Source: Deltaproteobacteria bacterium
Lineage (GTDB): Bacteria > Desulfobacterota > Binatia > UBA9968 > JAJDTQ01
Length of the DNA stretch: 64,000 nucleotides
Assembly (NCBI GenBank): GCA_026712905.1
Contig: JAPOPM010000175.1
Coordinates: 4,419-68,418, forward strand
Reading direction: 5' to 3'
In this document: positions 30,491 to 30,961 of the stretch, piece by piece
Layout: each line of letters begins with the position of its first letter
Position numbering within the stretch: the stretch's first letter is position 1
Notes under the pieces: model-generated
Seen by the model: only the letters and a program-made list of their open reading frames with translations
What the model was told of the DNA's origin: nothing
Databases searched by the model: none
Program-made: the position numbers and the translations under genes

Positions 30491-30961
30491 ATGTCGGCAC
30501 AACCCATCACCCTCAACGGCAAAAAGCTCATCATCCTCGGCGAACGGGACGGCGTCCCCGCCCCGGTCATCCAACAGGCCATCGCTGGACTGGGAGGCGA
30601 AGTCGCGTACGCCGCCACCCAGTGCTTCGTTTGAACAGCCGCTGGGGCCATGGACCTTGAGGATCAAGGTCGAATAAAAGAACTCGCGGAAGCCTACGGA
30701 AAAGACGACATCGTGGTGCTGCTCGGCGCCCCCACAACCGAGAGCAGCCAGGTCCAGTTCGAGACCGTTACCACCGGCGACCCCTCCTACGCCGGCCCCC
30801 TCGCCGGCGTGGAACTCGGGCTCCCGGCCTACCACGTCTTCGAGCCCAACGTGAAAGCCGCCATCGACCCCGCCCAGTACGCCGAGAACATCGAGATTCT
30901 GGAAATGGGGCTGGAGGCGGACGCCATCGTGGACGCGCTGGCGGGGATGCGGGCGGGGTAG
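30491..30961 (+). CDS. grdA: Glycine/sarcosine/betaine reductase selenoprotein A (GrdA), with selenocysteine encoded by in-frame TGA at 30632-30634
   Basis: ATG at 30491 is preceded by GAGGAGG. Translation gives [59 protein letters not shown]...[29 protein letters not shown]..., the GrdA architecture including the CxxU redox motif. The track shows only the C-terminal piece (30650..30961) because of the UGA. Confidence 0.9.
30653..30671 (+). promoter_or_regulatory. SECIS-like stem-loop downstream of the grdA UGA (GACCTTG-AGGAT-CAAGGTC)
   Basis: Perfect 7-bp stem with a 5-nt loop beginning 18 nt 3' of the UGA codon. Position and shape fit a bacterial selenocysteine insertion element, but the full element has not been modelled. 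Confidence 0.4.

Follow-up and report, generated by a model that had tools for sequence, protein, structure and literature searches.

Background

Selenoproteins, and the glycine, sarcosine and betaine (Grd) reductases especially, are regarded as hallmarks of anaerobes, and the chemistry by which carboxymethyl groups are carried in the clostridial Grd complexes is established (summarized in PMC13188914). In the characterized selenoprotein A (GrdA) proteins selenocysteine (Sec) always occupies the position equivalent to codon 48; truncated forms are not known and a cysteine form has not been reported (PMC1794560). The two reference clusters used here, from Enterococcus gilvus (plasmid pCR1A; locus L032) and Photobacterium (locus L033), hold trxB, trx, grdA, grdC, grdD and two protein B genes side by side, and the canonical order is trxB–trx–grdA–grdC–grdD–grdI/E–grdH/B. 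Here, we describe a grdA gene with an in-frame TGA codon in a 64 kb stretch of DNA (the window) from contig JAPOPM010000175.1 of assembly GCA_026712905.1, a Binatia genome deposited as Deltaproteobacteria bacterium, together with the adjacent grdC gene and a second locus on related chromosomes that carries grdB and grdE.

The Binatia gene order is grdC–grdA, in contrast to the canonical arrangement. The window product shares with clostridial GrdA (of Peptoclostridium acidaminophilum and Clostridium sticklandii, compared by way of the E. gilvus protein) the motifs TAAGAMDLE, misread as TAAGPMDLE in a preliminary description of this DNA, and GDP(S/T)(Y/F)AGPLAG, as well as a CxxU motif with a predicted UGA-encoded Sec at the same position, and grdC is adjacent in both. 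The hosts differ: the canonical systems belong to Stickland-fermenting Firmicutes, whereas the Binatia host has a GC content of 66% (66.3% for the window, a little below the ~68% given earlier) and oxygen-dependent enzyme genes, those in the window including a protoporphyrinogen oxidase and luciferase-like monooxygenases. Grd is regarded as an anaerobe trait, so this setting is moderately surprising. The earlier remark that the genome is an unusual one for grdA thus holds for the setting; the gene itself is typical of the whole Binatia clade and not the oddity of one genome.

Identification of grdA and its predicted selenocysteine codon

The grdA reading frame starts at an ATG at 30491, passes through a single TGA and ends at a TAG at 30959–30961. 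The start codon, the GAGGAGG sequence and the TGA lie where the preliminary description had placed them.

30479–30485, plus strand: ribosome-binding site GAGGAGG, 5 nt 5′ of the ATG, read from the sequence
30491–30961, plus strand: grdA, coding for a predicted selenoprotein A of 156 residues with Cys45-x-x-Sec48 (Pfam GRDA, NCBIfam NF040748, counterparts in 24 Binatia genomes)
30632–30634, plus strand: in-frame TGA, codon 48, probably read as Sec; kept in the clade, in its distant members and in canonical GrdA genes
30653–30671, plus strand: putative selenocysteine insertion sequence (SECIS) hairpin, in which 30653–30660 pairs with 30664–30671 around a GGA loop (30661–30663); predicted energy −11.2 kcal/mol

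For profile searches a cysteine was put in place of the stop codon. The product matched the whole of Pfam GRDA (PF04723; model positions 1–147 of 147, E = 2.7e-61, 206.1 bits against a cutoff of 22) and scored 208.7 bits against the NCBIfam selenoprotein A equivalog NF040748 (cutoff 130), with the redox motif Cys45-Phe-Val-Sec48 (UGA48) in the family position; the identity first proposed from the reading frame is thereby supported. The protein shows 52.7% identity with the annotated E. gilvus GrdA, and the TGA aligns with the UGA Sec codons of the E. gilvus and Photobacterium grdA genes.

Codon 48 is TGA in all 25 Binatia copies, in all of the more distant copies and in the canonical GrdA genes. 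An AAGGAG or GAGGAG motif precedes the upstream ATG at the same spacing in 24 of 24 related loci. In the clade alignment, pairwise codon differences number 1996 synonymous and 1083 nonsynonymous over the 47 codons that precede the TGA, and 4567 and 2675, respectively, over the 94 codons past the hairpin region; the same pattern is found on both sides of the TGA, from which we conclude that the upstream part is translated. Two outcomes had been named beforehand as telling against the assignment, namely homologs with a Cys codon at this position and an upstream part unrelated to the GrdA N-terminus. No Cys-codon homolog was found among the Binatia and more distant copies, and the upstream 47 codons are homologous to the N-terminus of GrdA and show the substitution pattern of a coding region. 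TGA is also the commonest ordinary stop in the window, where it ends 24 of 46 genes, which excludes a reassigned genetic code. A scan of the window flagged two further in-frame TGA candidates, which are merely gene junctions, and no other read-through candidate. Judged from these comparisons, the window holds a genuine, mis-called selenoprotein A gene in which UGA48 is predicted to code for Sec, and the genome would then be expected to encode a complete Sec machinery.

GrdA is a textbook selenoprotein of an already well known family; among the present relatives, the NCBI pipeline reads grdA through the TGA in some metagenome-assembled genomes (MAGs), including soil clusters of the L030 type. 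Elsewhere the gene is truncated, as had been anticipated. A mechanical list of open reading frames contains it only as 30650–30961 (103 aa), public contigs of identical sequence have it called as two pieces of 47 and 103 aa, each with a GRDA Pfam match, and public protein collections hold only these two fragments, named at best ‘glycine reductase’. Reading the frame through codon 48 corrects this systematic annotation error.

A conserved hairpin downstream of the UGA codon

The SECIS of Escherichia coli fdhF is a stem-loop within the coding sequence just past the UGA, with a G in its apical loop. In the window, the sequence GACCTTG-AGGAT-CAAGGTC forms either a perfect 7 bp stem with the 5 nt loop AGGAT or 8 bp with a GGA triloop. 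It begins 18 nt past the TGA, in agreement with the preliminary description, and its apical loop begins 26 nt past the UGA. The likeness to the fdhF element lies in the intragenic stem-loop just 3′ of the UGA and the G in the apical loop; the two sequences are unrelated, and the loop of the fdhF element starts ~18 nt after the UGA. The clade grdB genes have a TGA of their own followed by a stem capped by a GGY triloop, so that the loop type is common to grdA and grdB; in grdB the loop starts ~18 nt after the UGA.

A perfect stem of at least 8 bp at a SECIS-compatible distance follows only 13 of the 1491 TGA trinucleotides in the window (0.9%). Nineteen distinct clade sequences, reaching as low as 65% GrdA identity, share the 21 nt sequence GGACCTTGAGGWTCAAGGTCG, the loop base W being the sole exception, and the five spacer codons immediately 5′ of the hairpin vary freely at their third positions. 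Among codons whose amino acid is invariant, 4 of 13 in codons 49–62 show synonymous variation, compared with 69 of 90 elsewhere (Fisher p = 0.0016). The stem is written with the codons CUU, GAU, CAA, GGU and CGA despite a genomic GC content at third codon positions of 0.876, and the joint probability of the hairpin codons given their amino acids is 3.4e-6, as against 5.6e-2 for the preferred synonyms. By these measures the hairpin is under constraint at the RNA level, and it is probably a SECIS element. Canonical grdA genes of Firmicutes and Photobacterium encode ENQKR after the UGA and cannot fold this hairpin, which is therefore specific to the Binatia clade.

The codons flanking the hairpin (30635–30679) are rare as well (ACA 0.04, GCT 0.03, CGA 0.04 and ATA 0.04 of synonymous usage), and constraint on the sequence may reach past the 19 nt stem-loop. 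A short GCC/GGC stem directly after the UGA was also considered as a SECIS and was ruled out: its third codon positions vary freely and it lies too near the UGA.

grdC and its conservation in Binatia

28954–30408, plus strand: grdC, component C subunit beta, thiolase/KAS-III-like, 484 aa (NCBIfam NF040746, Pfam DUF5940)
30436–30463, plus strand: promoter-like TTTACA-16 nt-AAGAAT in the grdC–grdA spacer (consensus scan, nine of 12 matches; weak evidence)

The product of the gene upstream of grdA scores 507.7 bits against NCBIfam NF040746 (cutoff 450), is recognized by Pfam DUF5940 and keeps every residue that is invariant in canonical GrdC, including Cys223, Cys261, His338 and His430. Clade GrdC (28954–30408 in the window, compared with 8983–10524 of L032) lacks the C-terminal tail of ~30 residues seen in GrdC of Enterococcus and Photobacterium; this absence coincides with that of an adjacent grdD. 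The 82 nt gap between grdC and grdA contains no terminator-like site. A TTTCAC…AAGNAT-TGAC motif that resembles the promoter-like site recurs in most grdC–grdA spacers of the sponge clade.

The exact GrdC was found on 13 public metagenome contigs, and GrdC proteins with 80–94% identity are encoded by 24 species-level genomes that carry the label Candidatus Binatia, some of them under the older labels Deltaproteobacteria, Thermodesulfobacteriota or Syntrophobacterales. In 24 of 24 of these genomes grdC lies directly upstream of grdA, with its TGA at codon 48. Many of the Candidatus Binatia MAGs come from sponges, and some isolate names point to sponge hosts.

A second locus with grdB and grdE

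Neither grdB nor grdE occurs in the 30 kb on either side of grdA in the window, nor within 10 kb of it in the 24 related genomes. Metagenomes were scanned with a DNA probe built on the Sec/SECIS sequence of clade grdB, followed by a search with GrdE. The probe matched at least 120 metagenome contigs, which among the matches listed are mostly from soil with 54–60% GC, and one contig of 66% GC that carries grdB–grdE shares its metagenome sample of origin with the exact window sequence. Orthologs 81–89% identical to the GrdE of this contig are present on the chromosomes behind loci L008, L028, L026 and L016, and the chromosome behind L024 has a shorter GrdE copy.

L156 8676–11326 (OZ220712.1), with further copies in L158, L084 and L150: grdB, a second predicted selenoprotein gene, with its TGA in VST-U-GTCSRSG

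In at least five complete genomes grdB–grdE and grdC–grdA occupy the same chromosome, 0.6–2.8 Mb apart (for example, ~1.31 and ~4.07 Mb, respectively, in OZ220712.1 and ~3.81 and ~0.49 Mb in OY729432.1). The reductase is therefore split over two loci and grdC–grdA is not an orphan pair. The neighbours of grdB–grdE encode Rieske and cupin proteins, two glyoxalase-family proteins, an Amidohydro_2 protein, a creatinase-like M24 protein and nitrile hydratase.

In more distant relatives, whose GrdC is ~60% identical, the genes form one compact cluster with the order binding protein (SBP)–grdB (TGA)–grdE–grdC–grdA. Such clusters from soil Binatia (L030, assembly GCA_016210115.1; L034; L035) encode GrdA proteins that are 66–70% identical to that of the window; their grdA hairpin is the same save for one loop base, and grdD and trx are likewise absent. 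In the sponge clade, in contrast, the cluster is broken: grdC–grdA adjoins an M20 amidohydrolase and a RecB-like nuclease, and grdB–grdE lies at the second locus without the NMT1-type binding protein. At a distant Binatia locus grdE is convergent to grdA. Two soil relatives (L034, 2229–7301; L035, 678–5757) carry, upstream of grdB, two additional gene pairs, each consisting of a periplasmic-binding-protein-like gene with a Gly_reductase (GrdE-like) paralog, which suggests several substrate modules sharing one GrdC/GrdA.

Proposed mechanism and alternative explanations

We consider it highly probable that grdA is functional, that UGA48 is decoded as Sec with the help of the hairpin and that the product acts with GrdC and the distant GrdB and GrdE. 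For Sec insertion, SelB binding, the chemistry and the substrate we infer the following scheme. The hairpin at 30653–30671 would recruit SelB with Sec-tRNA(Sec) to the ribosome, leading to Sec at UGA48, and GrdA would be made together with GrdC from the upstream gene, and perhaps from a promoter of its own as well. On the model of the clostridial complexes, protein B, consisting of the distant GrdB selenoprotein and GrdE, would transfer a carboxymethyl group onto Sec48; GrdC would take over the Se-carboxymethyl group to give an enzyme-bound acetyl thioester and a Cys45–Sec48 selenide–sulfide, which thioredoxin would re-reduce.

Several results weigh against this account. A tblastn search with E. 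coli SelA, SelB and SelD over the window and ~1.35 Mb of loci matched only the Photobacterium reference, and ARAGORN gave no tRNA at all, and hence no tRNA-Sec, in the window or 26 related loci; grdB, as a second predicted selenoprotein gene with a TGA on the same chromosomes, lends such machinery indirect support. The hairpin shows no covariation, because its stem is invariant in every clade sequence. Rfam scans (the whole window at gathering thresholds and 30560–30760 permissively) gave matches at chance level and no SECIS family, and the 75 nt that follow the UGA form a fold of unremarkable stability (z = −0.89), the local hairpin alone being informative in that stretch. The grdB–grdE genes are known from sister chromosomes and a same-sample contig, not from the window's own genome. 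Neither grdD, trxA nor trxB occurs within 10 kb of either locus (~30 kb in the window) in ~150 clade loci. Clade GrdB scores below the cutoffs of the glycine, sarcosine and betaine models (GrdB, GrdF and GrdH; 422 against 602, 417 against 800 and 381 against 775, respectively), clade GrdE is below every substrate-specific cutoff (207 against 780 for GrdG, NF040793), and clade GrdE has Thr or Ala at the site aligned with Cys244 (GNC motif) of Photobacterium GrdE, which, in the light of the C. sticklandii work, is a candidate for the self-cleavage cysteine.

The first two of these results favour readings in which UGA48 is not Sec. If the TGA were a true stop, grdA would be inactivated and would yield only a 103-residue C-terminal or a 47-residue N-terminal product, exactly the fragments given by automatic callers. 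Set against this are the conservation, across 24 species-level genomes and distant relatives, of the TGA, of the reading frame and of the gene on both sides of it, the purifying selection on the upstream half with its conserved ribosome-binding site, the RNA-level selection on the hairpin and the characterized GrdA proteins, all of which have Sec here with no Cys or truncated forms; of the explanations weighed, we hold this one to be the least likely. Decoding of the UGA as Trp, Cys or Gly, through a reassigned code or near-cognate suppression, would equally dispense with tRNA-Sec and the sel genes, but TGA serves as the stop of over half of the window genes with no other in-frame candidate, the grdB gene on the same chromosomes has a TGA at a known Sec position followed by a similar GG-loop hairpin, and the position is Sec in all GrdA proteins studied. 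This reading is also very improbable. Hardly better placed is the view that GrdC and GrdA form an orphan pair without protein B, partnering, for example, the M20 amidohydrolase or neighbouring hydrolases. The lack of grdB and grdE around grdA and the conserved, divergent M20 gene would fit it, but it is largely refuted by the grdB–grdE orthologs (81–89% identity), which share a chromosome with grdC–grdA in at least five genomes, and by the distant relatives with grdB–grdE–grdC–grdA in one cluster; moreover, the DNA downstream of grdA is a variable hotspot whose genes are incidental neighbours (see below).

More room must be left for a Sec-containing GrdA that works in a distinct, GrdD-independent system, in which an unclassified protein B would charge GrdA from a compound that is neither glycine nor sarcosine nor betaine, and GrdC would free the acyl group alone (e.g. 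to CoA or water) instead of handing it to GrdD for acetyl phosphate; we regard this as a tentative possibility that falls well short of the preferred account. Its support comes from the steady order SBP–grdB–grdE–grdC–grdA without grdD or trx, whereas grdD directly follows grdC in both canonical references, from the subthreshold GrdB and GrdE scores and the missing candidate cleavage cysteine and from the missing GrdC tail. A tblastn search with E. gilvus GrdD found nothing in the window, in L001–L031 or in 120 metagenome loci, and L030, L034, L035, L156 and L158 contain no FA_synthesis-type gene. Clade GrdB (L156, 8676–11326; L030, 7341–9991; L034; L035) does pass the broad selenoprotein B model TIGR01918 (442.7 bits; cutoff 65). 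Clade GrdE is a partial match to fluoroacetate reductase FarE (NF053623, 104 bits) and to GrdG, and with cutoffs of 675 and 780, respectively, it belongs to neither family. Together, the departures suggest a distinct variant of the reductase. On the other side, the absence of grdD, trxA and trxB covers only the 10 kb around the loci, and these genes could simply lie elsewhere in the genome, as grdB–grdE do; GrdA and GrdC also score above the cutoffs of NCBIfam equivalog models that derive from canonical systems. In the Photobacterium reference (L033, 11838–12776) selD lies between grdD and grdE and there are two tandem grdA copies; the Binatia loci have no linked sel gene.

Significance

In the literature searched, nothing links Binatota or Binatia to selenocysteine or Grd, or Grd to sponge symbionts, and in one sponge study grdH was not detected. 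The two predicted selenoprotein genes, each with a conserved hairpin, would thus be the first concrete evidence in that literature for the use of selenocysteine by Candidatus Binatia. They point to a form of the reductase that is peculiar to the clade and widespread, represented on at least 120 metagenome contigs, with no linked grdD or thioredoxin gene and an unclassified substrate-binding component.

It is conceivable, and we put it forward with reserve, that Binatia, as sponge symbionts and as abundant soil relatives, possess an undescribed GrdD-independent selenoenzyme made up of GrdB-like, GrdE-like, GrdC and GrdA components, perhaps without the pyruvoyl-forming cysteine. Such an enzyme would act as a reductase on some other substrate and free the acyl group by a route that does not pass through acetyl phosphate, in organisms that are otherwise aerobically equipped, and would be a first indication of selenocysteine use in the phylum. 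Were the substrate an osmolyte or a host-derived amine, the system would matter for how carbon and nitrogen are exchanged within sponge holobionts and in soils.

Genomic neighbourhood

25497 to ~26990, minus strand: TM0106-type RecB-like nuclease, conserved neighbour upstream
26993–28438, minus strand: M20-family amidohydrolase, divergent from grdC, conserved syntenic neighbour (TIGR01891, 200.5 bits)

No grdB, grdE, grdD, trxA, trxB, sel gene or tRNA was found anywhere in the 64 kb. The sponge clade shares the divergent arrangement of the M20 and nuclease genes with the distant Binatia locus L031, whose GrdC is 62% identical. Downstream of grdA, a variable stretch (30962–32250) carries a HicB-like antitoxin (31077–31553) and, on the minus strand, a PIN toxin and a Phd antitoxin; in other genomes (L008, L010, L017 and L023) the corresponding position is occupied by a type I restriction-modification methylase. 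This region is therefore a hotspot for variable toxin–antitoxin and restriction-modification genes and its occupants are incidental. Beyond it, alpha/beta-hydrolases and an Opp-type ABC transporter are conserved.

A near-perfect palindrome lies upstream of grdC, with 70 nt arms (28665–28734 and 28757–28826) that are 94% complementary. Related copies occur at ~24146–24204, 46830–46899, 50716–50784, 59084–59154 and 19164–19260, and also in loci such as L009–L016, so that a regulatory element was ruled out; the palindrome belongs to a dispersed family of intergenic repeats that resemble repetitive extragenic palindromes or miniature inverted-repeat transposable elements.

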